NCBI GenBank assembly: GCA_041556855.1
Contig: JBFFHS010000009.1
Coordinates: 1,891 to 65,890, forward strand
Direction: 5' to 3'
Length of the DNA stretch: 64,000 nt
DNA from: Gammaproteobacteria bacterium
GTDB taxonomy: Bacteria; Pseudomonadota; Gammaproteobacteria; Steroidobacterales; JBFFHS01
Position 1 is the first letter of the stretch. Each line of letters opens with the position of its first letter. Shown piece by piece: positions 8,903-52,912 of this stretch. The position numbers were made by a program, and so were the translations under genes. The notes beneath the pieces were generated by a model. That model was not told the DNA's origin and made no database searches. It saw only the letters and a list, made by a program, of their open reading frames with translations.

Positions 8903-9826
8903 TCAAGCAGGGGTCGCGGGGATGTGTTCTTGATGGTGTTTCAAGTACCAGCTGGCCAACTCCTCGCGGGAGGGCCACCAGACCGTGTCCAGGGATTGGG
9001 CGTACTCAATGAATTCCCTGAGTGCGCGGATTCGATAGGCGCGACCGGAAACGTGAGGGTGCAAACCCACGTTCATCATCCGGCCATGGGTAGCACCCTC
9101 TTCGTTGAGCACGGCCAGTTCTTCGATGAGAAGGTCGCGATACTCATCAGTGGTGTGGCCACGTCGCATCAGCAGTGTGAAGTCATTGATCTCGTTGGAA
9201 TAGGGCGTGGAGACGATGGGGCCGTGATCCGTTCGCAGCAAGTAGGGCTGGTCGTCATTCAGCAGATCGCAGTAAAAGATCAAACCCTGCTCGGCCAGGA
9301 TACCCGGCGTGTGCAGGGTGCCCCGTAATGACGACGACAGCCAGCCTTTGGCTGGGTGACCTACGGTTTGCTCGTAGATTTCTAGGGTGCGGGTGATGAT
9401 CTCACGCTCTTTTGCCGGGTCATTGGCGAAGTCCGTGAGAAGCTCCCCCTGTTCGTAATTGTGGGGTACCAGCTCATAGCCCTGAGCCAGCGCGGCATCC
9501 ACGATCTGCCGGCGCCGCTCGCAGGTCAGCGCGTTGACAGGACAGCTGGGGCGCACGCCCAGGCTGTCGAACAGCTCGAACAAGCGCCACACGCCGACCC
9601 GCTGCCCGTATTCCCGCCAGGTGAAGTTGGGAAAATCGGGAACGTTGCCGGGGAGCACGTCGGGCAGAATGGGGGGGCCACCCGCGTAGTAGGGTTTGTC
9701 CGTGTCCTTGAGCAGGTCCCAGGTTTCCAGCGCCAGGGTAATGATCAAGGCGACCCGTTTGCCGCCGGGCCATTGCAACGGTTGTCGTGCTGGGAGGGGA
9801 ATATAGTCGTACACGGCTGGAATCAC
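8903..9826 (-). CDS. polysaccharide deacetylase family protein (PuuE-like divergent deacetylase)
   Basis: WPGGKRVALIITLALETWD N-terminal strand and C-terminal LHPHVSGRAYRIRALREFIEY motif are typical of PuuE-type deacetylase-fold enzymes. 307 aa. Confidence 0.7.
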   Translation of the reverse strand: MIPAVYDYIPLPARQPLQWPGGKRVALIITLALETWDLLKDTDKPYYAGGPPILPDVLPGNVPDFPNFTWREYGQRVGVWRLFELFDSLGVRPSCPVNALTCERRRQIVDAALAQGYELVPHNYEQGELLTDFANDPAKEREIITRTLEIYEQTVGHPAKGWLSSSLRGTLHTPGILAEQGLIFYCDLLNDDQPYLLRTDHGPIVSTPYSNEINDFTLLMRRGHTTDEYRDLLIEELAVLNEEGATHGRMMNVGLHPHVSGRAYRIRALREFIEYAQSLDTVWWPSREELASWYLKHHQEHIPATPA

Positions 9827-9898
9827 CTTATGCCGTCACCTTGAGCGATTGCAGTGTAGCTGGAAACCAAGCAGGCCTTGACAGAAGTGGGCGGCAAG

Positions 9899-9915
9899 CG
9901 TTCATATATTGAACG
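9899..9915. promoter_or_regulatory. inverted repeat CGTTCA-N5-TGAACG, candidate IclR operator
   Basis: aGCGTTCAtatatTGAACGg lies in the divergent region between the deacetylase (minus) and iclR (plus). A perfect TTGACA hexamer is at 9878-9883 just upstream. Confidence 0.45.
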
Positions 9916-9994
9916 GTTAGCCCGCAGAGGGAGCACCGGCGGGGGTCTAAGACAATACGATAGCCCCGCACACACCGTTGGAAAGGTCGGATTC

Positions 9995-10789
9995 ATGAGC
10001 GCGAAATCCAGCACACAAAGCCGTGGCCAAGAGCCGAAAGTACGCTCTCTGGTTCGCGGGCTGGAGATTCTCAGACTTTTGAATGTGGAGGGCGGGTTGT
10101 CAAACGCCCGGGTTGCCGCCGAGACGGGCCTGAACAGAATCACCGCCTATCGTCTGCTGCAAACCTTGCAAGCCGAGGGTTGTGTCCTGCGGGATGACGC
10201 CAAACGCTATCGGTTAGCGCCAGGTGTCCTGGAGCTTAGTAGCCTCTACCCCCGACAAAACTGGATCCTCAAGGTCGCTGCTCCGATCTTGGAAGACCTG
10301 AGTCGCGAGTTGGGTTGGCCGCTGATTCTGGCCACCAACAATGGCCCCTTCATGGTGATCCAGCATACGACCCGCGACAATGTGGGATTCTGGCTGAAGC
10401 TCCAGGGTCCCGGGTCGCGCCTGCCGTTGCTGGACAGCGCCCTGGGTTTTGCGTTTCTGGCTCGGGCGGCCCAGCCGTTGCGCGGCGATTTGATCAACGC
10501 TGCCCTGAAGGTCGAAGACGGCGCTTCCGTCGAACTGAGGCGCGATCGCAAGAAAGTGTACGATCTGCTCGACAAGGTCCACCGGGATGGCTATGCCACG
10601 CTGCGCGATAGCTGGGAGTCGGAAGCCGTGCCCCTGTCAGCCATCGCGGTCCCCGTGAGCGGGGCCGGGGATACCGTGGCCGCCCTGGGTCTGACCTACT
10701 ATCAGGCAGCGTTGACCAATGGGGAGGCGATTGGCCGGTTTGCCGCTCCCCTGCGCCAGGCTGCGGAGCGTATCGCGCGCGCCTCGTAG
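9995..10789 (+). CDS. IclR-family transcriptional regulator
   Basis: VRSLVRGLEILRLLNVEGGLSNARVAAETGLNRITAYRLLQTL is an IclR wHTH, followed by an effector domain. ATG at 9995 preferred to the ORF-track start at 9878. Confidence 0.85.
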   Translation: MSAKSSTQSRGQEPKVRSLVRGLEILRLLNVEGGLSNARVAAETGLNRITAYRLLQTLQAEGCVLRDDAKRYRLAPGVLELSSLYPRQNWILKVAAPILEDLSRELGWPLILATNNGPFMVIQHTTRDNVGFWLKLQGPGSRLPLLDSALGFAFLARAAQPLRGDLINAALKVEDGASVELRRDRKKVYDLLDKVHRDGYATLRDSWESEAVPLSAIAVPVSGAGDTVAALGLTYYQAALTNGEAIGRFAAPLRQAAERIARAS

Positions 10790-10821
10790 GGCTCGCTAAC
10801 CGGCAGCTGGGGCCAGATTGC

Positions 10822-10836
10822 GTTCGAATAGCGAAC
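10822..10836. promoter_or_regulatory. inverted repeat GTTCG-N5-CGAAC, candidate IclR operator upstream of TonB receptor
   Basis: tGCGTTCGaatagCGAACc lies 33 nt after the iclR stop, with a third GTTCG half-site at 10844-10848. It shares the GCGTTCR-N5-YGAAC form with 9899-9915. Confidence 0.45.
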
Positions 10837-10988
10837 CATTGGGGTTCGCCTAAAGGGGGTACGCTGCGTATATTGCGCAACTGTGCGTGCCATATACGTG
10901 GTTTTCGCAACTTGGGAGAGCCCAGCAGCACTCCGAACAGCGATCGGGTAGCAAACAAGACGGCGCGACACCGTGCCTAGGGGGAATC

Positions 10989-13358
10989 ATGTCTAGATCG
11001 AAGCCGCAAGCGCTATTGGTTACGGCCACTGCCACGGTATTTCTACTGACTTCGGGGATCAGCCTAGAGGGTATTGCCCAGGACTCCGAGGGGGCCTTGG
11101 AAGAAGTCGTTGTCACGGCGCGCAAACGCGAGGAAGCACTGCTCGACGTCCCGCTGGCGATCACAGCGCTGAGTGCCGGTGATATCGAGGCGAAGGGACT
11201 GACCGAGTTCAAAGACGTCATCGACTTCACGCCGGGATTCTTCTTCGCGGAGCATTCGGTTGGTCGCGGCGACCGGTCCAATCGCTTGCTGGTTGTGCGC
11301 GGCATGCGTATCAACACGGAAAACGACCATCAGCAGGCCGCCACCGTGTTCGTGGACGGCGTGCCCATGCTGGGTAGCGTCATCGCGGGTCTTGAAGACG
11401 CGGAGCGGATCGAGGTGATCAGGGGTCCACAAAGCGCCTATTTTGGCCGCTCTACCTTTGCCGGCGCCGTAAATTTCGTGACTAAGACACCGGGAGACGA
11501 ATTTACCGGCAAGGTGACTGCTGAGGCGGGGAATTTCGGCACCTCGAATTTCGGGCTGCAGATAGAAGGGCCCATCAGCGACACCCTGTCTTACCGCTTG
11601 TCTGGTAGTCAGTGGCAGACCAACGGACATTGGGATCTCGGTAATGATCCGACGATCACGTTGGGGGCACGCAAGACGACCAGCTTCGCCGGCACACTAT
11701 TCTTTCAGCCCAACGAACGGTTCACCGCCAAGCTGCGCATTCACAACTGGCGTGACGATGATGGACCATCCGCCGCCTTCGGCTACGGCTTTGGCAACGG
11801 CGAATCCTATTTCAACTGCAACCCGCCGGGATCCATCTTGGCGCCGCGCAACGGGCCCAACAATTACATCTGCGGTGAGGCGCCGTTTCCACAACCTTCT
11901 GAGATTCAGGGCGACTTCGTTCTAACGCCGGAGAAGCAGCAACTGTTGAACGGCGTGGCGGATCCCGGACTCAGCCTGGACGCAGCCTTCATTCCGCCTT
12001 TCCTGGAGGGCTTTGGTCTGGAGCGCCGGGCCGAGCAGGCCAGTCTGATCATGGACTATGAGTTCGAGAACGGCATCATGCTGACCTCCGCCACGGCCTA
12101 TCACTCTAACGAGTGGATGGCTCTGGATGATCTGGACCGACGGCATTACGATCCGCTGCCCTCACAGGTTCAGGACACCGCGCTTCTGAACAGTCGCGAT
12201 CTGGAAGATTTCAGTCAGGAAATCCGGGTCACTTCGCCGCAGGACAGACGCCTGCGTTGGACAGTGGGCGTGAGCTATTTCGACTTTGAAGGTGTGCGCA
12301 CCAGTGGTTTCAAAGTTCTCGGTAGCATCCGCTCGTTCAGCTTCGGCAACGTTTTCGATATCACCACAACGGGGATCTTCGGCGCCGTCGAGTACGACTT
12401 CAACGACCAGTTTACGCTGAGCGTGGAGGCTCGCCGACAGGAGGATGACCTGACCGAAGCCAGAACCACGGGCGCTGAATCCGCGTCGGGCACGTTCACC
12501 AGCACGACTCCGCGGATCATTCTGGATTACAAGCCTAATGCTGACCTCACGCTTTATGCCAGCTACGGTGAAGGGACCCGCCCGGGCGCCTTCAACGTGA
12601 ACCTGCTCGGCCAGCCCCAGAGCGTTCTGGATCAGCTTGCAGAAGTGGGGATCGGCACCGAGGTGCCGGAAGAGGAACTGGAGAACATCGAGTTTGGCAT
12701 AAAGGGCACACTGCTGGACGGGCGCGCCCAATTCAGTGCGGCGGTGTACAGCGCGGACTGGGATGCTCAAAGCGCAACCGCGCGCCAGGTCACTCTTCCA
12801 GATGGATCGACCGATTTTCTCTCGGGCAACGTAATTGGCGGAGTGATCGATCTGTTCGGCTTCGAAGTTGAGGGTGTTTGGGCGGCCACCGACAACCTCA
12901 CTCTGGAGGGCACATTCAGCTACAACGAGGCGGAATTCAAAGTATTCGAGGACTGCGGTGATTGCGCCTTCCTGCTGGGAACGACAGACATCTCAGGTCG
13001 CGGCAATGTGAAGAGCCGCAGCCCCGAGACCCAGGCGTCTCTGTCGGGCACCTATCAGGCGCGGCTCAATGATGTCTACGATTGGTTCACCCGGCTGGAT
13101 TTCATTCACACCGGTAGCCGTTATGCGACGGACGCTAACCTGCTGGAGACCGGCGATGCCAACCGCTTCAACCTGCGCGTAGGAATTGAGAACGAGAATC
13201 TGCGTTTGGAAGCATACGGAGAGAACCTGTTCGAGGACCGGACCTTTACGAACTATCAGCTGTTGCTTGATTTCTCCCAATTCGGTCTCAATCGCGTCAT
13301 TACCGCCGGGTTACCCGATGACCGCACCTTCGGTGTCCGGGCGGTCTACACGTTCTAA
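10989..13358 (+). CDS. TonB-dependent outer-membrane receptor
   Basis: Signal peptide and plug region (EEVVVTARKREEALLDVPLAITALSAGDIEAKG, VIRGPQSAYFGRSTFAGAVNFVTK). Long beta-barrel ending in FGVRAVYTF with terminal aromatic residue. Confidence 0.9.
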   Translation: MSRSKPQALLVTATATVFLLTSGISLEGIAQDSEGALEEVVVTARKREEALLDVPLAITALSAGDIEAKGLTEFKDVIDFTPGFFFAEHSVGRGDRSNRLLVVRGMRINTENDHQQAATVFVDGVPMLGSVIAGLEDAERIEVIRGPQSAYFGRSTFAGAVNFVTKTPGDEFTGKVTAEAGNFGTSNFGLQIEGPISDTLSYRLSGSQWQTNGHWDLGNDPTITLGARKTTSFAGTLFFQPNERFTAKLRIHNWRDDDGPSAAFGYGFGNGESYFNCNPPGSILAPRNGPNNYICGEAPFPQPSEIQGDFVLTPEKQQLLNGVADPGLSLDAAFIPPFLEGFGLERRAEQASLIMDYEFENGIMLTSATAYHSNEWMALDDLDRRHYDPLPSQVQDTALLNSRDLEDFSQEIRVTSPQDRRLRWTVGVSYFDFEGVRTSGFKVLGSIRSFSFGNVFDITTTGIFGAVEYDFNDQFTLSVEARRQEDDLTEARTTGAESASGTFTSTTPRIILDYKPNADLTLYASYGEGTRPGAFNVNLLGQPQSVLDQLAEVGIGTEVPEEELENIEFGIKGTLLDGRAQFSAAVYSADWDAQSATARQVTLPDGSTDFLSGNVIGGVIDLFGFEVEGVWAATDNLTLEGTFSYNEAEFKVFEDCGDCAFLLGTTDISGRGNVKSRSPETQASLSGTYQARLNDVYDWFTRLDFIHTGSRYATDANLLETGDANRFNLRVGIENENLRLEAYGENLFEDRTFTNYQLLLDFSQFGLNRVITAGLPDDRTFGVRAVYTF

Positions 13359-13385
13359 ACGTTCGTAGTTATCGTAAAGCAAGCA

Positions 13386-13423
13386 GCGCCGGGTTCCCGA
13401 TTGGGTTCCCGGCGCTTTTTTTT
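13386..13423 (+). terminator. rho-independent terminator/attenuator after the receptor gene
   Basis: GCGCCGGGTTCCC-GATT-GGGTTCCCGGCGC stem (8 GC pairs, 2x2 T-T internal mismatch, 3 more pairs) followed by T8, 28 nt after the stop. Confidence 0.7.
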
Positions 13424-13465
13424 CAGGACAAGAAACCCGTCATCGGGAGGAAGGGGTCGGTCGAC

Positions 13466-15160
13466 ATGAGCGAGAGGTTTGCGTTACCCGTCATTCTCGG
13501 CTTGTTGGGCTTTACGCTGCTCGGCTGCGCGCCTCGGGATAGCGAGAATGTTGAGCAAATGGGTTTGTTGTCAGGAACGGTTACATCGGATCAACCTTTT
13601 AAGGCGGCTCAAGTCACTGCCCGGCACCTGGACAAGAAAGTCATCTATACGGTGTACACAGCGGATGGTAACTACCGCGCTGTGCACATGTTCCCCGGAC
13701 GCTACGAGGTGCGGGTAGAGAAGTCAGGTTTTGAGACTCCGGCGCAGCAAATCGAGATCGAACCCGGCGGCCGGCATGTTGCTGATTTCAAGCTGCAGGC
13801 CGTGGATCCTGAGTCGCTGGCCCAGGAGCAATATGCGGGCTCCAAATTCATGGTCGATGCGCTGCAGCTTGCGTCCTACGATGAGGTTTATCCACCCGGG
13901 CCGGGCAGAGAGTTGGTCGAGCAGACCTGCATCATCTGCCACGGCGTCAATTATCTGCCCGGCGGCCCTCGCAACGAAGCGGCCTGGGACGCCGCCTTGG
14001 ACATGATGATGAACCAGGGTCAGGCCTATGGGGTTGAAGACGGCGCCTCACTGATTGCGCCTGACGTTATTGATGCCCAGGAGCGGGAGGTGCTGCTGGC
14101 CTATCTGACCGAAAATTTCGGTGACGACGACCCACTGCGCGCCGTGCGTATTGACGGGGAGTTTCCCCTGGACGAGGCAGCCCTGGCCAAGGCCATGTAT
14201 GTGGAATATGAGTTGCCCGACACCGAGGACATGACGAATCGTTGGATCCAGGAACCCCATTTCGACGCCGAGGGTAATGTCTGGTTTACGGAGCGCGGGT
14301 TTCCCAGCGCCATGACACGGCTTGATCCGCGCACGGCCACGTACACGGATTTCATGAATCCTGATCCCGCCGGTTCACCCCACGGCGTGGTGGTGGATCC
14401 GGAGGGTTTCGTCTGGTGGGCGGGGCGCGAAGTCCATCTGGCGCGGCTTGATCCAAGCACCGGAGAGGTTCGCGAATATCCGGTGGAGAAGCCGGGGCTG
14501 CACGGCCACACGCCGGTGCTGGACTCAAAGAGCAATATTTGGTTCTCCATGCTGCCGGGGAACCGGATTGGCAAGTGGGACCGGCAGACGGAAAAGCTCA
14601 CCCTTTACGAAGTACCCACGGCTCGGGCCAGGCCATACGGCATCGTTGTGGCTCCCGACGATCAGGTCTGGTTTGCCGAGTTCCATGTTTGTCGCATTGG
14701 TCGTTTCGACCCGGACACGGAGCGTTTCAGCGAATATTCCGGCCCAACCAAGGCCTGCACCATTCGCCGCTTGGGTATGGACTCCAAGGGGATTGTCTGG
14801 TTCGGCTTGTTCAGCGCCGGCAAGCTGGGTCGGCTGGATCCCAAGACGGGGGAGGTGACGGAGTACGAGATTCCGGCACAGTTCTCAGAACCCTATGACA
14901 CCTGGCCCGACGCCGAGGACAATATCTGGATCAGCGACGGCGGTCAGCGGGGCGCCCTGATCAAGTTCGATCAACAGACCGAGACGTTCACCTTTTATCC
15001 GTCGCGCTTGAGGACGGACATGCCCAAACTCGCCATCACCCGTGACGGAGCCATCTGGTACAGTGCCCGCTGGGCAGCTCGCTCCTCCGACACACCGGCC
15101 ACGGTGGGTGTCCTTTACCCGGATATGGACAAGGTCGAGACGCTGGGAGCCTACTACTGA
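13466..15160 (+). CDS. lipoprotein: CarboxypepD_reg-like domain + mono-heme cytochrome c site + Vgb (streptogramin lyase)-like 7-bladed propeller (paralog A)
   Basis: GGGAGGAAGG RBS and LLGC lipobox. FPGRYEVRVEKSGFE Ig-like segment and CIICHG heme motif. Seven repeats ending like IGRFDPDTERFSEY / LGRLDPKTGEVTEYEIP. Confidence 0.8.
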   Translation: MSERFALPVILGLLGFTLLGCAPRDSENVEQMGLLSGTVTSDQPFKAAQVTARHLDKKVIYTVYTADGNYRAVHMFPGRYEVRVEKSGFETPAQQIEIEPGGRHVADFKLQAVDPESLAQEQYAGSKFMVDALQLASYDEVYPPGPGRELVEQTCIICHGVNYLPGGPRNEAAWDAALDMMMNQGQAYGVEDGASLIAPDVIDAQEREVLLAYLTENFGDDDPLRAVRIDGEFPLDEAALAKAMYVEYELPDTEDMTNRWIQEPHFDAEGNVWFTERGFPSAMTRLDPRTATYTDFMNPDPAGSPHGVVVDPEGFVWWAGREVHLARLDPSTGEVREYPVEKPGLHGHTPVLDSKSNIWFSMLPGNRIGKWDRQTEKLTLYEVPTARARPYGIVVAPDDQVWFAEFHVCRIGRFDPDTERFSEYSGPTKACTIRRLGMDSKGIVWFGLFSAGKLGRLDPKTGEVTEYEIPAQFSEPYDTWPDAEDNIWISDGGQRGALIKFDQQTETFTFYPSRLRTDMPKLAITRDGAIWYSARWAARSSDTPATVGVLYPDMDKVETLGAYY

Positions 15161-15230
15161 GGTGATAACGCGTCTGTCCTGCGGGCTCGTTCGGTCCCGT
15201 CTCAGCCCTCTGGCGTCGAGACTCCCGGAT

Positions 15231-16535
15231 ATGAGGGTTATCGCCTGGTTGCTGGTTCTCTGGAGCCTCGCGGCGTCGCTGCCGAGCAGGGCCGAGGAAA
15301 AATATGCCCGGCCGGCGTCATCCCTGATGCCCGTATCCGCAGTCAAGGACGGTTCCCCGGCCGAGCTCGCATACCGGCTCCGCCGGGGCTTCGGCTTTCC
15401 CAATGCCTATGACGCGGTTGATGAGAATCTCTATTACAACCTCCACTGGGAGGAATTCGTTCCCCACAATGTTGTGCGGCGCGCCGGTCCGGTTCGGCAG
15501 TTGGCCGTGGCCCCTGATGTCAGGGTCGGCCAGGTCATCGCGGAGTCATCGCTGGGCAGGATGTCGCTGGATGAGTTGATCGCTGATCCCAGATCCCGCA
15601 TTCAGGGTTTCATTGTCGTCCACCAGGGCCGGATTGCCTACCAGAGCTACCCCGGTATGCGTGAGGACGATCACCACCTGTGGTACTCCACTGCCAAGTC
15701 GGTGGCCGGGTTGCTGGTGGGGCTGCTGGAGGCGGAAGGCAGAATCGACGTCAACAAGCCCATAGATGTCTATCTGCCAGATTTAGCGGACACCAACTGG
15801 CAAGGTATTCCCATCATCGACATTCTGGACATGGCCAGCGGGCTGGATCTGGCGGAGAACGATCAGACCCGGTTCAATCCCGGGCACTCGGTGGGTCAGT
15901 TTTTCCGGATTGAGCTGGGGGAAATGCGCAGCGTTGACACGCTGACCTCCGATGAAATTCTGTTTGCCGTTAACAGCAAGCGCCCACCGGGTCAGCTGTT
16001 TGAGTACTCGTCTCTCAACACCAGGATGCTCGCCTTGCTGGTCGAACGCGTCTCCGGTGCGCGACTGGCGGATTTCTTCACCGATCGGGTATGGTCCAGG
16101 ATCGGTGCGGAGGGCGATGCCCTGATGGGTGTGAATCCCTGGGGCGGTGCCGCCATTTATAGCTGGCTCTCCACTCGACTTCGGGATAAGGCACGTTACG
16201 GCATGCTTTACACGCCCAGCTGGAAGGCGGTGGCGACCCAGCCGGTGGTGCCACCAACCCTGCTCCGCAGCATTCAGCGTGATTGCCGTTCCCACATCTA
16301 TCAGAGTGGTGTCACGGCGGGTACAGTTGATCTGGTTGAGGAAAAGCGGTGCAACTCGCGGCAATGGGACACCATCTTCGTGGACGGTGATCTCTACAAG
16401 GGCGGGGCGCGGGGGCAGGGTCTGTACGTGTCGCCCGCCCGCGACCTGGTCGTTGCCTGGTTCTCGACAACACGTGAGTCTGGTTGGCTGGCCTACGCAC
16501 GTGCTGTTGCCAAGGCCCTGGTGCCAGATCCCTGA
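15231..16535 (+). CDS. exported serine hydrolase (beta-lactamase/esterase fold)
   Basis: Signal peptide MRVIAWLLVLWSLAASLPSRA. SxxK motif in YSTAKSV and a downstream YSSLN (YxN-like). ATG at 15231 preferred to the ORF-track start at 15042, which overlaps the upstream gene. Confidence 0.8.
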   Translation: MRVIAWLLVLWSLAASLPSRAEEKYARPASSLMPVSAVKDGSPAELAYRLRRGFGFPNAYDAVDENLYYNLHWEEFVPHNVVRRAGPVRQLAVAPDVRVGQVIAESSLGRMSLDELIADPRSRIQGFIVVHQGRIAYQSYPGMREDDHHLWYSTAKSVAGLLVGLLEAEGRIDVNKPIDVYLPDLADTNWQGIPIIDILDMASGLDLAENDQTRFNPGHSVGQFFRIELGEMRSVDTLTSDEILFAVNSKRPPGQLFEYSSLNTRMLALLVERVSGARLADFFTDRVWSRIGAEGDALMGVNPWGGAAIYSWLSTRLRDKARYGMLYTPSWKAVATQPVVPPTLLRSIQRDCRSHIYQSGVTAGTVDLVEEKRCNSRQWDTIFVDGDLYKGGARGQGLYVSPARDLVVAWFSTTRESGWLAYARAVAKALVPDP

Positions 16536-16557
16536 CCGGCCCAGACGGGGGGAAGAC

Positions 16558-18654
16558 ATGATTAATCGATCAGAACAGTTGATCGCCTCGTTCCTTGCTG
16601 GTGGCTTGCTGGCGGGCACACTCTGGGTGGAGAGTGCAGCAGCTGACGGCATAAAGCGCAGCTTGCAGCGCTCCGAGGACATCTACAACTATGCGACCAT
16701 CGCCACGGACGGTCCGGGACGGGGGTTAGACCTCTACTATCACAAGTGCTGGAAGTGTCATAACGATCACGCCGTTGCCGCGGGGTCGCCAGCGACGATC
16801 CTCAACGGCCTGTTCACCAGGCCTGCGTTGTTATCCGGTAAGCCAGTCACGGTAGCCAACGTTGCTGCCAAGATCAGGGATGGTGGACCGTTGATGCCCG
16901 CGTACAAATACGACCTCAGCGATCAGGACGTTGCCGACCTGGTCAGCTACCTGGGCGAGGAGGACTGCTGCTATGTAGGTGAGGAACCGCCCGCCAATCC
17001 CAGGTATCGCGCTCATCCCTCGCGAGTGGCTCGCTTGGACGGTCCCCGCAAGCTGACCAGTGGACCACGGGGGTCCGTACGCCTCGACTCCGGCGATCCT
17101 CTGGAAGGGATCGCCGTGCAGCTGATTGCCGACTCGAATGCCGTACGGACTACGGTCTATTCCGATGCCGAAGGTGCCTTTCATTTTCCGGAGTTGCTGC
17201 CGGGAACCTATACCCTGCGGGTCGCTCGACCCCTCGAATTCAAAGCTTTTCAGCGCAACGATCTGCGGATCGACGGAGCGAACCGGCTGGATCCAATTGT
17301 CCTGCAACGGGTTGAGGCCATCGAGGGTCTGGAATATACGGAGCTGCTACCACCCACGGATTCCATCGCCGCGCAGCTGACGGGCTCGGAGTGGCTGATG
17401 AACTTGCCCGGTACCGGCCAGGAGAAGCGGGTGTTCAGCAACGCCTGTGGTTTTGCCTGCCACTCCTATCAGCAGATCTTCCGCAATCGTTACGATGAGC
17501 AGGGCTGGCGACAGATCGTACAGCGAATGACGCGCTATGCGGGGTCCCCGCTTATCGTTCCATTTGCCCAGGGTGAACGGCGGGCAGGAGGCAGTCGCCG
17601 CCTGATCACCTATCGGGAAGAAGCCGAGGACATCATCATAGGCTGGCTGGCCAGAGTGCGCGGCCCTGATGCGGTCGACGCGCCCTTCAAGACCTTACCT
17701 GGACCGCGCGGCCGCGCCACCCGTGTCGTCATTACCGAATATGAGATGCCCAGCTTGCTGCTGGCGCTGCACGATGTAGACGGGGATTCGCAGGGTAATG
17801 TCTGGTACACGTCCCACCGGACGCCCTACATCGGCAAGCTGGAACCCCGAACAGGTGTGGTCACGGAATACCGCGTCCCGAGCACCCCGGGTGCCCTGTC
17901 CGGAACCCACACTGTATGGGTCGATGACGATGACATTGTGTGGCTGTCTGAGGGGTGGACCCACAAGCTCACAAAATTCGATCCCAGCACGGAAAAGTTC
18001 ACTCAATATCCCCTGGCCGTCCCGGGGCGCCCCAAGAACTATCCGGGATTTGGTAATTTCGGCCTGGCTCCAGATGGATTCGTCTGGTACGTCATGGGTG
18101 CTGCGGTCACCAAGATCGACCCCGCATCGGGCAAGTTTCTGGAGCGCTATCCCTTTGAAATCATGCGCTTTACCTACGACAATCTGATCAGCAAAGACGG
18201 TACCTACTGGGTCGGCGGCCAGTGGCCCGGCAACCTCATTGGCGTGCTCAACATCAAGACCGGCGAGTTGCGGGAGTTTGAGACCCGCTCCAAGCTTTCA
18301 AGCCCTGCCAAAGGCGCTTTCGGTTGGGACGGCAAAGCCTGGTTCGGTGGCCGTGGTGGGCAACTCATTGAAATCGACCCGCAGACCGGCCGATCCCAGG
18401 AATACTTTCCGCCCACGCCGTACGTGACTTTCTATGAGGCCATGCCTGATAAGAACGGCGAGATTTGGGCAGCAGAGCAACACGGCGGCCATTTCGCGAG
18501 ATTCAACCCGGCAACGGAGCAGTGGGTGCAATATATGCTGCCAGAGCCTTTCGGGCACAACCGCCGCACCTGGGTGGACCACTCTACAAATCCCGTCACG
18601 GTCTGGTATGCCGACCATAACGGCTACATGGTGCGCGTTGAGCCGCTCGATTAG
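16558..18654 (+). CDS. exported di-heme protein: class-I cytochrome c + CarboxypepD_reg-like + second CxxCH + Vgb-like 7-bladed propeller (paralog B)
   Basis: ATG at 16558 after a GGGGGGAAG RBS; the ORF-track start at 16147 overlaps the hydrolase. Signal peptide, CWKCHN ... PLMPAY, LPGTYTLRVARPLEF and CGFACHS. Seven repeats such as IGKLEPRTGVVTEYRVP. Confidence 0.8.
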   Translation: MINRSEQLIASFLAGGLLAGTLWVESAAADGIKRSLQRSEDIYNYATIATDGPGRGLDLYYHKCWKCHNDHAVAAGSPATILNGLFTRPALLSGKPVTVANVAAKIRDGGPLMPAYKYDLSDQDVADLVSYLGEEDCCYVGEEPPANPRYRAHPSRVARLDGPRKLTSGPRGSVRLDSGDPLEGIAVQLIADSNAVRTTVYSDAEGAFHFPELLPGTYTLRVARPLEFKAFQRNDLRIDGANRLDPIVLQRVEAIEGLEYTELLPPTDSIAAQLTGSEWLMNLPGTGQEKRVFSNACGFACHSYQQIFRNRYDEQGWRQIVQRMTRYAGSPLIVPFAQGERRAGGSRRLITYREEAEDIIIGWLARVRGPDAVDAPFKTLPGPRGRATRVVITEYEMPSLLLALHDVDGDSQGNVWYTSHRTPYIGKLEPRTGVVTEYRVPSTPGALSGTHTVWVDDDDIVWLSEGWTHKLTKFDPSTEKFTQYPLAVPGRPKNYPGFGNFGLAPDGFVWYVMGAAVTKIDPASGKFLERYPFEIMRFTYDNLISKDGTYWVGGQWPGNLIGVLNIKTGELREFETRSKLSSPAKGAFGWDGKAWFGGRGGQLIEIDPQTGRSQEYFPPTPYVTFYEAMPDKNGEIWAAEQHGGHFARFNPATEQWVQYMLPEPFGHNRRTWVDHSTNPVTVWYADHNGYMVRVEPLD

Positions 18655-18684
18655 GGTATGGGTGACGAGACATGAGAGAGACTA

Positions 18685-20001
18685 ATGGGCGTTGATCTGC
18701 GCAAGTTTCTGGGGGACATCCAGACGCAGTCATCCGGGAGTTTCTTGCGAGTGAAGGGTGGAGTGGATCCGCGCTGGGAACTCTCCGCGGTGCAGAAACG
18801 TTTGGAGATGGACGGCGCCTTGCCGGTGTTGCTGTTTGAGCAGGTCGCCGGCTCCCAGATGCGGGTGGTGAGCAATTTATTTGCCCGCAAACGCTACGTG
18901 GGGCTTGCCATTGGCGCGCCCGTGGGTCAGCTGGCCCAGCATATCGCCCAGGCGTGGCAGCGCCCCATTCCCTCTGTGACGGTGACGGCGGGTCCGGCGC
19001 AGGAGGTTGTTCACGAGTCTGACCAGGTAGACCTGCGTACCTTGCCACTGGTCACGCACTGCGAAAAGGACGCGGGACCTTATCTCACTTCCGGCGTGAC
19101 CATCATGCGTGACCCGGACTCGGGATTTCTGAACGCTGGGATGTACCGCAGCCAATATCTCTCGCCAACCACGTGCACCATGAACCTAAGCCCGGTCAGC
19201 CACGGCACCGAGATCGCCAACGCGGCCGAGGCGCGTGGCTCCCATGTCGAGGCCGCCATCGTTCTCGGCCACCATCCGGCGCTCGCTATCGCCACTCAGC
19301 GGCACGGTGTGCCCGGGGAGTTTGAGTTGGACATCATGGGCGCGCTTGTTGGCGAGCCGGTAGAGATGGTGCAGGCCAGGACAGTGGACGTCCTGGTTCC
19401 GGCCAGCGCCGAGATTGTGATTGAGGGCAGGATTCGAACGGACCTCTGGGCGGACGATGGGCCCTTCGGCGATTTCGCCTTCTACTATTCAAAGGTCAAG
19501 AAGGCGCGGGTTTTTGAAGTCACGGCAATCACCCACCGCCATGACGCCATATTTCACGATCTGTTCAGCGCGGGCCGTGAGCACCCGCTGCTGTATTCCC
19601 TCGGCCGGGAAACGGCTGCGTTCAACGAGCTTGAGCCAAAAATTCCCGGCTTGCGCAGCGTGAGCGTGTCGGTGGCAGGCGCCGGCCATCTGCTCTACCT
19701 GAGGATTAATAAAACCGAGAATAATCAAGGCCTCGAGGCGGCTCGCGCGGGGCTTGAGACAGGCAAGTTCATCGGTGTGGTAGTGGTGGATGAAGATGTG
19801 GACATCGAAGATGATCGGCAAGTCGTGTGGGCGCTCATGACCCGCGCCCGAGCGGAAGCCTCTCTGGTGACCATGCCCGGTCCCAGCATCACCCATGCGG
19901 GTATCGACGCCACGCGAACTCTGGATCCCGGCTTTCCCGAGTACGCCCAGCCGCCTAGAGAGCTGTGGAGCAATCTGCAGCTCAGTCGCTTTCTGAAATA
20001 G
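18685..20001 (+). CDS. UbiD-family (prFMN-dependent) decarboxylase/carboxylase, paralog 1
   Basis: LRKFLGDIQ...FLRVKGGVDPRWELSAV...PVLLFEQV... and DLRTLPLVTHCEKDAGPYLTSGVTIMRDPDSGFLNAGMYR match the UbiD family layout. 438 aa. Confidence 0.8.
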   Translation: MGVDLRKFLGDIQTQSSGSFLRVKGGVDPRWELSAVQKRLEMDGALPVLLFEQVAGSQMRVVSNLFARKRYVGLAIGAPVGQLAQHIAQAWQRPIPSVTVTAGPAQEVVHESDQVDLRTLPLVTHCEKDAGPYLTSGVTIMRDPDSGFLNAGMYRSQYLSPTTCTMNLSPVSHGTEIANAAEARGSHVEAAIVLGHHPALAIATQRHGVPGEFELDIMGALVGEPVEMVQARTVDVLVPASAEIVIEGRIRTDLWADDGPFGDFAFYYSKVKKARVFEVTAITHRHDAIFHDLFSAGREHPLLYSLGRETAAFNELEPKIPGLRSVSVSVAGAGHLLYLRINKTENNQGLEAARAGLETGKFIGVVVVDEDVDIEDDRQVVWALMTRARAEASLVTMPGPSITHAGIDATRTLDPGFPEYAQPPRELWSNLQLSRFLK

Positions 20002-20010
20002 AGCGGCGCC

Positions 20011-20772
20011 GTGTCGCAATCATTGCAAGGAAGAACGGCGTTGGTCACCGGCGCGGCAGCGGGTATGGGGCGTTCCCACGCGGTCGTGCTGGCCCAGCGC
20101 GGCGCCGATGTTGTCGTGCATGACGTCAATGGGGATGGCGCCGAGGAGACCGCCGCGGCTGTGCGTGCCGCGGGTCGGCAGGCCCGCGTGATCGTCATGG
20201 ATATTCGCGACACCGACGCGCTGGTCGAGGCGGTCCAGGACGCTGCTGCCCATCTCGGCAGCATCGATGTTCTGGTCAACAATGCTGGTGTTGGGGGCGA
20301 GGGTCTCTCGCTGGAGGACGTCACAGAGGAGATCTTCGATCGCGTCTTTGATGTCCATGTCAAAGGGGCGTTCTTGCTGACCCGGGCCCTCGTGCCAGGG
20401 ATGAAGCAGCAGCGCTACGGCAAGATCATCAACATCACGTCCGTTTTTGCCATGGGCGGCAGCGCCTTCGCGTCCCACTACGCCGCCGCCAAGTCGGCGC
20501 TGACGGGCTTGACCAAAAGCTGGGCGCGGGAGTTGGCGCCGTTCAACATCATGGTCAATGCCGTCGCGCCTGGTGTGCTGGAGACTGATATGACGCTCAA
20601 CAGCGTCGGCAAGGACAGGATCAGGGCCCTGGCTGAGGATATACCCCTGGGTCGGATGGCCAAGCCGATTGATATTTCCTATGCGGTTGCCTGGCTGGCC
20701 TCGCCGGAAACGGACATGTTGACGGGGCAGGTCATCTCCCCAAGCGGTGGCGCAGCCATTGTCGGGATCTGA
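20011..20772 (+). CDS. short-chain dehydrogenase/reductase (SDR)
   Basis: TGAAAGMG cofactor motif, NNAG, catalytic YAAAK. GTG start 10 nt after the UbiD stop. Confidence 0.85.
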   Translation: MSQSLQGRTALVTGAAAGMGRSHAVVLAQRGADVVVHDVNGDGAEETAAAVRAAGRQARVIVMDIRDTDALVEAVQDAAAHLGSIDVLVNNAGVGGEGLSLEDVTEEIFDRVFDVHVKGAFLLTRALVPGMKQQRYGKIINITSVFAMGGSAFASHYAAAKSALTGLTKSWARELAPFNIMVNAVAPGVLETDMTLNSVGKDRIRALAEDIPLGRMAKPIDISYAVAWLASPETDMLTGQVISPSGGAAIVGI

Positions 20773-20792
20773 GTTCGGCGCGCGCTCTGCCC

Positions 20793-22136
20793 TCAGGCAT
20801 CGTACTCGTCCCATCTGCGGATGTAGGCTTTCATGCCCGAGCCGAGAATGACCACGCCGATAATCGAAGCAACGACGGTAACCACGGTCAGCGACATGCC
20901 GACCGACATATCATCCTTGAAATAGAAATCCGTCATGGCCGCGACGGCAGACGGTCCGATAGCCAGACCAATGATGCTTATCGCGAACAGATAGATGGCA
21001 ATGATCTGGCCCCGCATTTCGTTGGGCGTGATAGCTTGGAGGATTGCCGGGGGCATGCCGGTGGGGCCGCCCATGAAAAAGAACGTGAGCGCAAGGCACC
21101 CCAGCGCCCAGTAGGGACTGTCGAAGGCCAGCATCAATGCCAGAGGGATGATCACCAGTATCTGGGAGATCAGAAGAATCTTGGAGTAGGGCGCTTTCAT
21201 CCCGCGCCGCATGAGCCACTGGGTCAGAAACCCTGCGGTCGCCAGCCCGGCCGTGCCAAAGATCAAGACCACCGAGCCAAACCACGGACCAATCTGTCCC
21301 TGATTCCACCCATACTGCCGGATAAACATCGTGGGGACCCAACTGAAAATGGAATAGATCGTGAGCACGAAAAACGATGTGCCGATAATTTGGGAGCCAT
21401 AGGCAAGCCAGTGCTTGCGGATATAGCGGAAGGTCTGTCTCATGCTGACGTCCTGTGTCGTGCTCATCAGTTCCTTACGGGAGGGCTCGCGAACCGTAGC
21501 CATGAGAAGCACGATGGGAAGTCCGGGAAGTCCAACGAGTACGAATGCGATCTGCCAGGGGGCCAGTTCCCCCAGCAGAAAGATATCCTGAGCGCCGCCG
21601 GTCATCGCGAACTGCACAGCGATGCCGCCAAAGATATAGGCCAACCCGGCGCCACACAGAATACCCGCCGAATACATGTTGATGGGCAGTCCCCTTTTCT
21701 CCTTCGGGAAGGAGTCGGAGATAATGGAATAGGCGGCGGGAGAGAGCGCAGCCTCGCCGACGCCGACGCCGACCCGAGCAAGAAACAGCTGCCAGTAGTT
21801 GGACGCGAGCCCACACAGTACCGTCATCAGACTCCAAAGACTCACGCCGGCCATAATGAGCCCTTTACGGTTGTGGCTATCTGCTATCCGCCCGAGGGGG
21901 ATGCCCATGATGGTGTAGAAGATGGCGAAGGCCAGCCCCTGAATCAGGCTGACCTGAAAATCCGTAATCTGAAAATCCGCTCTGATCGGTCCGATGACAA
22001 GCGCCAGAATCTGCCGGTCAATGAATGACAGCGTGTAGGCAAGATACAGGACCCCGACCACGTACCACGCGTAACCAGAGGGTGGATAGGAGCCGGTCGG
22101 GGCGCTTGGAGAACCTGTTGCTGGCTGATCGCTCAC
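20793..22136 (-). CDS. MFS transporter
   Basis: 12-TM pattern and GRIADSHNRKG loop motif. 447 aa. Last gene of the minus-strand array. Confidence 0.85.
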   Translation of the reverse strand: MSDQPATGSPSAPTGSYPPSGYAWYVVGVLYLAYTLSFIDRQILALVIGPIRADFQITDFQVSLIQGLAFAIFYTIMGIPLGRIADSHNRKGLIMAGVSLWSLMTVLCGLASNYWQLFLARVGVGVGEAALSPAAYSIISDSFPKEKRGLPINMYSAGILCGAGLAYIFGGIAVQFAMTGGAQDIFLLGELAPWQIAFVLVGLPGLPIVLLMATVREPSRKELMSTTQDVSMRQTFRYIRKHWLAYGSQIIGTSFFVLTIYSIFSWVPTMFIRQYGWNQGQIGPWFGSVVLIFGTAGLATAGFLTQWLMRRGMKAPYSKILLISQILVIIPLALMLAFDSPYWALGCLALTFFFMGGPTGMPPAILQAITPNEMRGQIIAIYLFAISIIGLAIGPSAVAAMTDFYFKDDMSVGMSLTVVTVVASIIGVVILGSGMKAYIRRWDEYDA

Positions 22137-22156
22137 GGTGGCGATGGTATGAACGA

Positions 22157-23173
22157 TTACTCTTGTTCGCCGATAGGGCCCACTAATACCTTACCCATTG
22201 GCCCGTGGCGCAGGTAGTTAAGCCCTTCTTGGACCTCATCGAAGGGAAACACGCGATCAATGAGCAGCCTGGCTTTGCTGGATTTGAGCACCTGGCAAAG
22301 CGCCGCAAAACCCCGTTGCGATTCCGTCTCCGATTGCATGCTCACCTGGATACCGTGAATCTGGAGGCGCTTGAAGAGAATCTCCATGGGATTGATTTCG
22401 CAGCGGGTGCCGCCCAGTGCGCCAATGACGCACATGCGCCCGAACGGCTTGAGCGCGCCAAGACTGCGGGCGAACGACTCACCGCCGACCAACTCGAGCA
22501 CCACATCCGCCCCGCCCACAGCTTGGATTTTCTCGGCGATCTCGGGGTCATTGGTGTCGAAAACATGATCTGCGCCGAGTTCCAGGAGCTTGGCGCTCTT
22601 GTCGGGATGTCCCGATAGCTCCAGAAGTCCCGTCGCGATGGTCTTGGCGCCCATGGCCTTGGACAGGGCCAGCGCGGCCAACCCTACGCCCCCCGTGGCG
22701 GCCGTGAGCAGGACCGTCTCGCCTGCCTGGAGCTTGGCCACGTCCGAGAGGGCTTGCCAGGCTGTGAGGAAGACCTTGGTGCCGGCTGCCCCATCCTGCG
22801 GCGACCACCAGGGTGGCAACAGCGCCAGCTCGCCTGCCGGGATCGCGACGTACTCCGCCAAGGTCCCATCCCGGGTAATGCCCACGGTGGCGCCCGTGAA
22901 CACCACGGCGTCATCCACATTGAACTTATGGGTCGAGTTGGCATCCACGATTCGGCCGCAGCCATCCCTGCCGACAGAGAACGGGGGTTTTCCGGCGCCC
23001 GGATAACGGCCCATGACGAGAAAGGCGTCCGCTGGGTTCAGTGCCGCGTAGTCGAGTCGGACCAGTACCTCGCCCTCCGCGGGCGAGGGGATCGGTACCT
23101 GCTCCAATTGCAGGTTCTTCACATGACCGAATTCGTGAAAGCGCCATGCGCGCATCGTGGCGCCGTCAGGCAT
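22157..23173 (-). CDS. MDR-superfamily NAD(P)H quinone/enoyl oxidoreductase
   Basis: LDYAALNPADAFLVMGRYPG and TAATGGVGLAALALSKAMGAK (Rossmann). An alternative start MRAWRFHEFG lies at 23155. 8-bp overlap with the ligase stop if 23173 is used. Confidence 0.75.
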   Translation of the reverse strand: MPDGATMRAWRFHEFGHVKNLQLEQVPIPSPAEGEVLVRLDYAALNPADAFLVMGRYPGAGKPPFSVGRDGCGRIVDANSTHKFNVDDAVVFTGATVGITRDGTLAEYVAIPAGELALLPPWWSPQDGAAGTKVFLTAWQALSDVAKLQAGETVLLTAATGGVGLAALALSKAMGAKTIATGLLELSGHPDKSAKLLELGADHVFDTNDPEIAEKIQAVGGADVVLELVGGESFARSLGALKPFGRMCVIGALGGTRCEINPMEILFKRLQIHGIQVSMQSETESQRGFAALCQVLKSSKARLLIDRVFPFDEVQEGLNYLRHGPMGKVLVGPIGEQE

Positions 23174-24737: not shown

Positions 24738-24885
24738 AGATACCCCCTTCTCTCTACAGGGCACTGTGATTTAAGCAAATGCAGGGGCAATTCGTGTCGG
24801 AAACGCTGTTGCTGGTTGGAGACGGTTCGCTGCGGCAGCCACCGAGCAAGGTACAGTCTGATCTATCACAGTGTTTTCCATGGAA

Positions 24886-26307: not shown

Positions 26308-26320
26308 GAAAACACAGTCC

Positions 26321-28465: not shown

Positions 28466-28683
28466 CTCTCCGTCCCGCAGAGATCCTGCCTCTTGGCCCG
28501 TGGCGTATCTGCTCTAAGGCTTGGTTTGCCTGCGGGAACGGGGGCGGCTCTTATGGGGTCGCGGAAGGTTGATCGTTCACTCAGTGTTCTCGGAAAATTT
28601 TGGCAGGAAGCCCCTAAGCTTCATCGTAGCGTTCTGGTGCCGGGGGAATCCATCGGGGGCAACCTGCCGGGGTTGAAGCATGC

Positions 28684-30294: not shown

Positions 30295-30343
30295 GATTTC
30301 TCCTTATCGGTAGGGCGAAGCCGCTGCCGTTGTGACTTTCCTG

Positions 30344-35011: not shown

Positions 35012-35017
35012 AGGAGA

Positions 35018-36570: not shown

Positions 36571-36740
36571 TATTTCAAGGCCTTTCAATTACATAGGGTT
36601 AGACGCGTATTTCTGAGATTCAGGTCCTTTACAAAGCGGCTAAAATGGTCGATAGTTATATCATTAGCAGCAGCCGGGGCGCGGCCCGTTCGCGTCGCGG
36701 TCATTTTTTCTGCGCCCCAGGGCGCTGGTTGGGATTGAAC

Positions 36741-37628: not shown

Positions 37629-37660
37629 GCGCACCGCGTATTGATCGGGAGTAGATTGAA

Positions 37661-38155: not shown

Positions 38156-38175
38156 CGAATTTCGGGAGAACTGCT

Positions 38176-52681: not shown

Positions 52682-52912
52682 GATCGGCGGCAGCGGCAGA
52701 CGGTAGGTGCCGGAGGCTTCTGGGTTGCGACCCCTGTTATGGCCGTTCTTCAAGACTGAAAGCCACGCAAAAAACCCTGCAAGTAGACGGCGACCAACCG
52801 CTAGCATGGGGCTTATCGTACCGCCTCGGGGATACTGGGGTGGAACATTCCGCTCTGCCGAGAGTCCGATAAAGGCGGTATCATCGCGCTTGCCACTGCA
52901 AAGGACACGCCT

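Follow-up and report, generated by a model that had tools for sequence, protein, structure and literature searches.

Enzymes in which a periplasmic propeller is wired to a cytochrome form a small and well-studied set, comprising the pyrroloquinoline quinone (PQQ) quinohemoproteins, cytochrome cd1 nitrite reductase, and the amine dehydrogenases, which feed electrons from periplasmic substrates into respiration. In cytochrome cd1 nitrite reductase, an N-terminal heme c is followed by the propeller within one periplasmic polypeptide, and electrons pass from the heme c to the propeller centre. Quinohemoprotein amine dehydrogenase consists of a two-heme alpha subunit with an immunoglobulin (Ig)-like part, a seven-bladed beta subunit, and a gamma subunit carrying cysteine tryptophylquinone (CTQ). 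In the quinohemoprotein alcohol dehydrogenases and the PQQ six-blade dehydrogenases, a periplasmic propeller is wired to a class I heme c that is either fused or encoded next door, and in SorAB the cytochrome SorB accepts electrons from a periplasmic dehydrogenase. The streptogramin lyase Vgb is a single-domain, seven-bladed propeller of about 300 amino acids (aa) without signal peptide or heme, whose catalytic and Mg-binding residues are reportedly Y18, H228, E268, H270, and E284, as Korczynska et al. are said to have described in 2007. In Vgb, polar residues conserved in blades 6 and 7 hold the substrate and Mg2+ (PMC8916777). Vgb-fold propellers have been reused for other chemistry in CylK and BrtB, with loss of the Vgb catalytic residues and an active site formed where the propeller meets an additional N-terminal domain (PMC8916777), and PQQ six-blade proteins with an adjacent cytochrome c4/c551 place their cofactors about 12 Å apart (bioRxiv 10.64898/2026.07.10.737718). 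Here we describe four paralogous genes in a 64-kb stretch of contig JBFFHS010000009.1 from a Gammaproteobacteria bacterium (the whole stretch is called the window), which encode exported proteins combining a CarboxypepD_reg Ig-like domain, one or two putative cytochrome c domains, and a Vgb-type propeller. We propose, with a probability of roughly 0.45, that the family they represent consists of periplasmic oxidoreductases with a built-in heme relay and not of lyases.

The four paralogs listed in the earlier note were confirmed as open reading frames (ORFs) at the same positions. They are named P1w to P4w and are composed as follows.

13466–15160 (+): P1w, a 564-aa lipoprotein with CarboxypepD_reg domain, one predicted heme-c domain, and a Vgb-fold seven-bladed propeller
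13568–13798 (+): P1w CarboxypepD_reg Ig-like domain, aa 35–111 (PF13620, 46.3 bits)
13928–13942 (+): P1w heme-binding motif C155-I-I-C158-H159, invariant in 56/56 P1w-type sequences and in both subfamilies
14006–14008 (+): P1w Met181, probable distal heme ligand, invariant in both subfamilies
14195–15121 (+): P1w seven-bladed propeller, aa 244–552, delimited from AlphaFold2 strands, the best Foldseek match (Vgb, TM 0.89), and conservation
16558–18654 (+): P2w, a 698-aa Sec-exported two-heme member with cytochrome c, CarboxypepD_reg, CX3CH heme domain, and Vgb-fold propeller
16720–16953 (+): P2w N-terminal class I cytochrome c, aa 55–132 (PF13442, 35.8 bits), with CWKCH at 16747–16761 and Met113
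17068–17268 (+): P2w CarboxypepD_reg domain, aa 171–237 (PF13620, 44.3 bits)
17446–17463 (+): P2w internal heme motif C297-G-F-A-C301-H302 (CX3CH), with Met324 downstream; Cys, Cys, and His in 111/111 sequences
17725–18645 (+): P2w seven-bladed propeller, aa 390–696, with a His-rich central ring (H405, H420, H451, Y540, Y626, R670)
44280–46220 (+): P3w, a 646-aa Sec-exported paralog with CHGCH at aa 170 and a C-terminal extension of about 60 aa
49916–51607 (−): P4w, a 563-aa lipoprotein paralog with CIECH at aa 160

The extracytoplasmic location that had been proposed agrees with the export signals read from the sequence, namely lipoboxes in P1w (LLGC) and P4w (LTAC) and Sec-type signal peptides in P2w and P3w. 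The CarboxypepD_reg-type segment was likewise recovered, as PF13620 exceeded its Pfam gathering score of 32.3 in P1w, P2w, and P4w (33.9 bits), while P3w fell below it (22.4 bits). P3w and P4w share 38% and 43% identity with P1w and were therefore grouped with it, whereas the P1w and P2w subfamilies are about 24% identical. The module order, described earlier as the same in P1w and P2w, differs between the two proteins, because P2w has an additional N-terminal cytochrome c. The C-terminal extension of P3w (46040–46220) contains two Cys residues and is absent from P1w and P4w, and the metagenome contigs JABAOE010049523.1 (L098) and JABAHO010016305.1 (L099) encode P2w at 98% and 95% identity, respectively.

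Across the six reading frames of the window, the ORFs of 70 aa or longer contained the CX2-3CH motif eight times, and five of these eight matches lay inside the four paralogs: CIICH in P1w, CHGCH in P3w, CIECH in P4w, and, in P2w, the N-terminal CWKCH (aa 64–68) and the internal CGFACH. The heme motifs in the paralogs are not due to chance. Among the remaining matches, CATCH at 61729–62826 on the minus strand was rejected as a cytochrome, being part of a DnaJ zinc finger. The CxxCH site that the earlier note had read in both proteins of the pair is correct for P1w, but the CGFACH of P2w is CX3CH. At the internal site, 58 members of the P2w clade have CX3CH and about 44 have CXXCH, and because the two spacings alternate in this way we regard CX3CH as a tolerated variant of a working site and not as decay. 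CXXCH was present in 119 of 120 P1w homologs, and C155, C158, H159, and M181 were invariant among 56 P1w-type sequences, M181 being the sole invariant Met or His of the P1w heme domain apart from H159. In the 111 P2w-type sequences, C64/C67/H68 with M113 and C297/C301/H302 with M324 were invariant at the two sites, so that the predicted conservation of the heme motif and a distal Met in orthologs was borne out in both subfamilies. A joint alignment brought the Cys, Cys, His, and Met columns of the two subfamilies into coincidence, and the motif was located at about aa 140–180 in 61 of 71 mid-length representatives of 50%-identity clusters, down to about 30% identity. In some relatives, additional CXXCH domains are found at the N or the C terminus. 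This Cys-Cys-His plus Met pattern is that of a His/Met electron-transfer heme, and from it we infer heme attachment. The N-terminal domain of P2w scored above the PF13442 gathering score of 27, and the closest named relatives of the internal heme domain were, weakly, the SorB-type cytochrome subunits (NCBIfam E 2e-6, 27.6 bits against a cutoff of 93); a profile search of this domain against the PDB returned SorB 2blf_B at E ~1e-3 and cytochrome c6 at E 0.05. SorB-type cytochromes are thus the best named match of the internal heme domain, although the similarity is weak and the window proteins have no molybdenum domain.

The N-terminal unit of P2w, made up of the cytochrome c, a Cys-Cys pair, and a PPxNPRYR tail, is a separate gene in seven loci of relatives (L112, L138, L147, L154, L163, L166, L177). 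There, the cytochrome gene ends just past the PPxNPRYR tail, and a one-heme member with its own signal peptide follows 1–105 nt downstream; a small cytochrome c also adjoins more divergent one-heme members. As the two parts are fused in one lineage and adjacent genes in another, they probably work together, the cytochrome serving as a dedicated electron-transfer partner; no other result from the gene neighbourhoods was as informative. This arrangement, and the occurrence of extra cytochrome c domains at either end of relatives, strengthened the analogy with quinohemoproteins that the earlier note had drawn. In six of the seven split loci (L112, L138, L154, L163, L166, and L177), the cytochrome and the downstream gene share a reading frame with one stop codon between them, and the downstream signal peptide sits at the position of the P2w linker, which suggests that the genes were split or fused when one stop codon was gained or lost. 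Selenocysteine insertion or readthrough at the Cys-Cys pair was considered and rejected, as the stops are TAG, TAA, and TGA, lie after the PPxNPRYR tail, and are followed by a new start and a signal peptide. In P2w itself, Cys137-Cys138 is as invariant as C64/C67/H68/M113. The vicinal Cys-Cys and PPxNPRYR tail (16966–17016, aa 137–153), which closes the partner cytochrome whether fused or separately encoded, may represent a vicinal disulfide or a peptide used for docking.

The earlier assignment of the propeller to the Vgb type agreed with all three kinds of search used. The Pfam family PF24684 (Vgb_lyase, gathering score 50) matched P1w with 123.2 bits, P4w with 81.6 bits, and P2w with 51.4 bits, with P3w below the threshold (42.4 bits), and phmmer against PDB sequences found Vgb with E values of 7e-33 (P1w) and 7e-14 (P2w). 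AlphaFold2 models built from a 56-sequence alignment for P1w and a 50-sequence alignment for P2w were confident (pLDDT 91.5 and pTM 0.90; pLDDT 88.0 and pTM 0.89, respectively), and Vgb was the top Foldseek match of both (TM 0.89–0.90 on the target, rmsd 2.3 Å, 19–23% identity). The match was limited to the propeller (TM on the query 0.39–0.49), and no solved structure spanning the whole architecture was found with either model. The seven signature repeats counted earlier correspond to seven blades, although the explicit signature occurs six times in P1w and is far more degenerate in P2w, P3w, and P4w; the seventh blade of P1w is closed by strands from both propeller ends. These comparisons place the propeller in the Vgb superfamily by descent.

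The most conserved part of the propeller is a polar ring around its central channel, which in P1w is formed by Q262, R277, H306, H348, Y391, R435, Y477, K521, and R535. The catalytic residues of Vgb fall at fixed places of the blade repeat, namely after the Pro that opens the inner strand, two residues before that place, and four after the Trp of the second strand, and at the first of these places P1w carries H265, H306, H348, Y391, R435, Y477, and K521 in blades 1 to 7. In both subfamilies, H306, Y391, and Y477 never vary, and a basic residue occupies positions 435 (Arg or Lys) and 521 (Lys or Arg). Q262, R277, H348, R434, D491, Q494, D518, and R535 are specific to the P1w type, while the P2w type has His at positions 262, 277, 494, 519, and 535 (P1w numbering), so the pocket is Arg/Gln-rich in the former and His-rich in the latter. 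By analogy with other propeller enzymes, such a ring is usually the site that receives substrate, metal, or cofactor. Two further residues of P1w, Cys409 and Cys431 (14690–14758, blades 4–5), are near-invariant in the P1w subfamily (24/28 and 25/28), where they may be joined as a disulfide; the P2w subfamily lacks them.

Compared with the systems described above, the window proteins share with Vgb (PDB 2Z2N/2QC5) a homologous seven-bladed propeller with its functional residues on the top face around the central channel, but, unlike Vgb, they are exported and also contain one Ig-like and one or two cytochrome c domains. The PQQ dehydrogenases provide an analogy of design and not evidence of homology: no PQQ-family Pfam match (PF01011/PF13360) was obtained in the window proteins, their blades are seven and of Vgb type, and their heme domain is N-terminal to the propeller. 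A TIGR03606 match was insignificant, covering 34 residues over one blade with 19.4 bits against a cutoff of 434, and no pqq genes were present in the window. Cytochrome cd1 nitrite reductase has the same order of heme c and propeller, but its eight blades bind heme d1, it has no sequence relation to the window proteins and was absent among the top Foldseek matches, and no d1-biosynthesis genes were present. Quinohemoprotein amine dehydrogenase, also a periplasmic dehydrogenase, has the parts seen in P2w (cytochrome c, Ig-like domain, and seven-bladed propeller); it and methylamine dehydrogenase differ in being multi-subunit enzymes with the cofactor on a separate small subunit made by maturation genes, none of which lie beside the family, and no sequence similarity to them was detected. 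CylK, an alkylating enzyme that binds Ca and takes part in natural-product synthesis in cyanobacteria, has no heme and does not belong to uptake or catabolic clusters. Matches to hydrazine synthase and to anammox S-layer proteins were rejected as relatives, as they concern only the Ig-like domain or generic propellers. Cytochrome-wired propeller enzymes are known as a design; a Vgb-fold version of them has not been known before, although the current evidence does not set it apart as a category of its own. Consistent with the earlier note, no characterised or solved protein with this architecture was found in the literature, the PDB, or Foldseek.

In the window, P1w and P2w belong to a co-oriented run of seven genes with gaps of 10–108 nt, in the order IclR regulator, receptor, P1w, hydrolase, P2w, UbiD, and short-chain dehydrogenase (SDR). 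The genes of this run other than P1w and P2w are the following.

9878–10789 (+): IclR-family regulator (HTH_IclR and IclR_C), about 100 nt before the receptor ORF on the same strand
10887–13358 (+): TonB-dependent outer-membrane receptor (PF07715 Plug, 52.3 bits; PF00593 barrel, 108.3 bits), probable true start near 10989 (MSRSKPQ...)
15231–16535 (+): exported beta-lactamase-fold (SxxK) serine hydrolase (PF00144, 92.5 bits), with STAK motif and signal peptide, true ATG at 15231
18685–20001 (+): UbiD-family (de)carboxylase, 31 nt past P2w and in the same position in the related locus L086
20011–20772 (+): SDR, closing the run

The TonB-dependent receptor upstream of the pair and the serine hydrolase between its members, both anticipated from the sequence, were thus recovered with Plug and barrel domains and with PF00144, respectively. 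The hydrolase is not a named beta-lactamase, since all class C beta-lactamase NCBIfam models were far below their cutoffs.

The neighbourhoods of relatives showed a different picture for the two subfamilies. For the P1w type, 76 loci with about 700 clustered neighbour ORFs were sampled, and the most frequent neighbours were an exported SDR (10 loci), a Bug/TctC-type binding protein (9), SBP_bac_5 (8), Amidohydro_2 (8), DUF1838 (7), and a TonB receptor (7). A fixed operon for the P1w subfamily was therefore rejected, and the context of P1w had already changed at 70% identity (L087); ten of the P1w-type loci contained two family members. For the P2w type, 91 loci representing 23 lineages at 70% identity were examined within 6 kb. 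Here, 16–17 loci of 9 lineages had a TonB-type outer-membrane protein with CarboxypepD_reg and OMP_b-brl_4 domains, 15 loci of 7 lineages an exported Amidohydro_1/3 protein (about 605 aa; median gap 108 nt), and 14 loci a small cytochrome c with one heme (median gap 37 nt). The linkage to a TonB receptor, presented earlier as a property of the system, is consequently lineage-specific and not family-wide, occurring within 6 kb in 7/76 P1w-type and 16–17/91 P2w-type loci (9/23 lineages). Nor is the beta-lactamase-fold partner a general feature, as it was confined to a single lineage, that of the window itself (three loci); beyond the window, it adjoins a P2w-type gene in L086 and L092. Elsewhere, the hydrolase adjoining P2w-type genes is an exported amidohydrolase. 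The order receptor, P1, hydrolase, P2, and UbiD recurs in L086, where P1 is 80% identical to P1w. In L092 (1–7996), the hydrolase and P2 are directly preceded by genes for an aldo-keto reductase (AKR), two UbiD proteins, an AMP ligase, and a zinc alcohol dehydrogenase (Zn-ADH), that is, by the genes found at 22157–31339 of the window minus the ADP-forming ligase, and this linkage indicates that the periplasmic pair of hydrolase and P2 may belong functionally with the decarboxylase/ligase pathway.

Other loci were more varied. Tannase and alpha/beta hydrolases neighbour family members in L002, L087, and L096, the last of which also contains a PQQ dehydrogenase with cytochrome c and a multicopper oxidase, and a pyrogallol-transhydroxylase-like (AhtL) molybdenum enzyme is located near a P1-type pair in L004. 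In L095 (3427–9055), an overlapping run flanked by three genes for TonB-type outer-membrane proteins is composed of a one-heme member, a SorA-like molybdoenzyme (Oxidored_molyb and Mo-co_dimer), a 178-aa cytochrome c, and a P2w-type gene, so that the enzyme bracketed by family members is SorA-like there and a beta-lactamase-fold hydrolase in the window. In four loci from Xanthobacteraceae (L035, L037, L038, L067), the P1w-type gene is immediately preceded by a gene for a heme-less Vgb-like propeller of about 320 aa, and the same arrangement, with a 380-aa propeller gene, was seen in an uncultured metagenome-assembled alphaproteobacterium (L072).

Several results weigh against reading the family as oxidoreductases. 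The internal heme domains scored 14–19 bits, below the Pfam cytochrome c gathering score of 27, and the His/Met ligation of the heme is deduced from residue conservation. No redox cofactor or metal site was identified anywhere in the propeller. The P1w-type genes had no conserved neighbour, the best family reaching 10/76 loci, and no adjacent cytochrome was found in those loci; moreover, the locus counts overstate independence, because many of the sampled loci come from related metagenome-assembled genomes. Finally, a promoter and terminator scan of 9500–22500 gave no more sites than shuffled sequences, so that the presumed co-transcription of the window run depends on its short gaps and on synteny.

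The wide variety of neighbours could also be explained if the propeller were not catalytic but bound a partner enzyme, a receptor, or a ligand, with the protein shuttling electrons or sensing redox state. The bracketing of unrelated enzymes, such as the hydrolase in the window and the SorA-like enzyme with its cytochrome c in L095, is in line with such a carrier or scaffold, and the anchoring of a lipoprotein beside a TonB receptor resembles the accessory lipoproteins of receptors. In addition, NHL-type propellers have been reported to stabilise outer-membrane cytochrome complexes (bioRxiv 10.1101/2022.05.06.490989). Even so, we consider this explanation rather unlikely: the top conserved residues of the propeller form the polar ring at the central top-face channel, where Vgb catalyses (PMC8916777), and therefore look like an active or cofactor site rather than a protein–protein interface, while hydrolases such as the beta-lactamase-fold protein need no electrons.

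The chemistry originally suggested for the pair was that of a Mg-dependent C-O lyase acting on an ester or lactone, and in its general form this would make the family non-redox lyases or lactonases, with Vgb-like or SGL-like cleavage of an imported ester, lactone, or depsipeptide and a structural or regulatory heme. The propeller is unambiguously of Vgb type, weak SGL (lactonase) Pfam matches occur, and ester or amide hydrolases (beta-lactamase-fold, tannase, alpha/beta hydrolases, and amidohydrolases) are frequent neighbours, all of which would suit this chemistry. To compare the residues, Vgb 16–291 was rebuilt from HMMER alignments, with Y, H, E, H, and E at positions 18, 228, 268, 270, and 284, and the blades were enumerated one by one, because sequence alignments of the repeats are ambiguous in register and both MAFFT --add and global pairwise alignment slipped by whole blades. 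The end-to-end register was chosen as the sole one compatible with the Foldseek alignment of about 310 columns on a 293-residue target. In this register, Vgb H228, E268, H270, E284, and Y18 correspond to P1w Y477, M519, K521, R535, and H265, so the catalytic and Mg-binding residues of Vgb blades 6 and 7 are replaced by Y477, M519, K521, and R535. The complete set was retained in none of the seven blade rotations. The best rotation kept three of five, H306, H348, and Y391 mimicking Vgb H228, H270, and Y18, and both glutamates, including the Mg ligand E268, were missing in every one. The NCBIfam models for Vgb(A)/Vgb(B), with a cutoff of 600 bits, gave scores of 36–80 (best 79.8 bits). Thus, the features that define a streptogramin lyase failed for these proteins, namely the residues, the NCBIfam cutoff, and the single-domain, non-exported form, and the invariant heme ligands, the added cytochrome domains, and the split or fused cytochrome are hard to explain without electron transfer. 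We therefore judge the lyase or lactonase explanation improbable.

An enzyme that changes the redox state of a metal imported as a chelate, for example a ferric siderophore, with the esterase opening the chelator, is highly improbable even though the best NCBIfam match of the receptor is a siderophore-receptor subfamily (150 bits), periplasmic esterases that open siderophore lactones are known, and the His-rich pocket of the P2w type, with six conserved His, would suit metal binding, since the receptor remained under the cutoff of that subfamily (223.5) and of all substrate-specific NCBIfam models, the regulator is of IclR type, the flanking genes encode UbiD, SDR, major facilitator superfamily (MFS), CoA ligase, and molybdoenzyme proteins, the window showed neither iron-uptake ABC genes nor genes of the Fur type, and the neighbours across the family are catabolic enzymes and solute-binding proteins.

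The island surrounding the run contains three UbiD genes, two ADP-forming and one AMP-forming CoA ligases, MFS transporters, alpha/beta hydrolases, IclR/GntR regulators, and molybdoenzymes of the xanthine dehydrogenase (XDH) and dimethyl sulfoxide (DMSO) reductase types. On the minus strand at 22157–31339, the order is AKR, UbiD, ADP-forming CoA ligase, UbiD, AMP ligase, and Zn-ADH. The GC content falls to 0.50–0.52 at 24001–28000, compared with about 0.60 elsewhere; this segment, which spans a UbiD gene (24886–26349, minus) and an ADP-forming CoA ligase gene (26321–28465, minus), may be a recent acquisition inside the island. Two molybdoenzyme systems are situated at 31548–35650 and 36645–40665, one composed of an NrfD-like membrane subunit, a DMSO-reductase-family subunit, and a 4Fe-4S protein, and the other of FAD and molybdenum subunits resembling XDH/4-hydroxybenzoyl-CoA reductase, followed by the second ADP-forming CoA ligase. 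Between P3w and P4w, a 204-aa ORF (47896–48510) gave a weak stand-alone CarboxypepD_reg match, below cutoff (E 5e-4). Directly upstream of P4w on the same strand, a gene at 51638–52807 (minus) encodes a 389-aa probable lipoprotein (LLAGC) with a weak match to SGL/lactonase-type propellers (E 0.004). Together with the tannase and pyrogallol-transhydroxylase-like genes near relatives, the island points loosely to aromatic or phenolic acids, or their esters or amides, as the compounds that might be handled.

The family is large, conserved, and uncharacterised, with two subfamilies typified by P1w and P2w. An exhaustive phmmer search of 1.84 billion cluster representatives at 50% identity yielded 663 matches at E <= 1e-30, a count that takes in multi-propeller proteins, and 8,452 at E <= 1e-10. 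A word-indexed search at E <= 1e-10 gave, at 90% identity, at least 1,460 clusters of the P1w type and at least 819 of the P2w type, nearly all of those listed being full length (about 560–570 aa for the P1w type and 690–700 aa for the P2w type). Hosts in representative genomes are almost all metagenome-assembled and mostly uncultured soil and marine bacteria, including marine Rhodospirillaceae, Rokubacteria, Acidobacteriota, Xanthobacteraceae, Burkholderiales, Woeseiaceae, Steroidobacteraceae, and Marinimicrobia; the only cultured host found among them was Elongatibacter sediminis CH-27. Several copies per genome are common in Acidobacteriota, Rokubacteria, marine Rhodospirillaceae, Woeseiaceae, and others, where they adjoin uptake systems and exported hydrolases. 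In public databases, the proteins appear as 'virginiamycin B lyase', 'streptogramin lyase/mono/diheme cytochrome c family protein', or 'carboxypeptidase regulatory-like domain-containing protein' and under no other names; NCBIfam has no model that names the family, and a full-text literature search returned nothing on a heme-fused Vgb-like protein.

If the family members are oxidoreductases, they would work outside the cytoplasm, either in the periplasm or as lipoproteins anchored to the outer membrane. The central pocket of the Vgb-fold propeller, lined by the invariant His306, Tyr391, and Tyr477 and by basic residues, would bind the substrate and possibly a metal or an organic cofactor, and a covalent His/Met heme c in the SorB-like domain just before the propeller would relay electrons between the pocket and periplasmic carriers, in one direction or the other. 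In the P2w type, the second class I cytochrome c, fused N-terminally or encoded by an adjacent gene, would provide the connection to the periplasmic pool. Applied to the window, with its run of receptor, P1w, hydrolase, P2w, UbiD, and SDR, this scheme would have a compound enter through the outer membrane and be cleaved hydrolytically in the periplasm by the exported serine hydrolase; the compound or its product would then be oxidised (or reduced) at the propeller enzymes, and the product would be handed to a cytoplasmic catabolism of the aromatic-acid type. A more specific version, which we put forward as a doubtful possibility, is that these proteins are a new class of periplasmic 'hemo-propeller' dehydrogenases with a new redox centre in the His/Tyr/Tyr/Lys-Arg pocket, wired through the SorB-like heme c to the respiratory chain. 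Candidates for this centre are a bound metal, an organic cofactor other than PQQ, or a quinone derived from a Tyr of the protein.

The annotation of these proteins has consequences of its own, as the label 'virginiamycin B lyase' invites false calls of antibiotic resistance in metagenomes. Such an annotation in archaeal metagenome-assembled genomes has been taken as streptogramin resistance (PMC10064710), and the absence of the lyase residues corrects the resistance reading of this label. The cultured host Elongatibacter sediminis CH-27 makes the question experimentally approachable. If the oxidoreductase reading is true, the family would add a Vgb-fold version, with a different active centre, to the cytochrome-wired propeller enzymes. 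Should the 'hemo-propeller' version hold, it would give oligotrophic bacteria of soil and sea a way to draw electrons, outside the cytoplasm, from compounds imported through TonB-type transporters and released by exported hydrolases.

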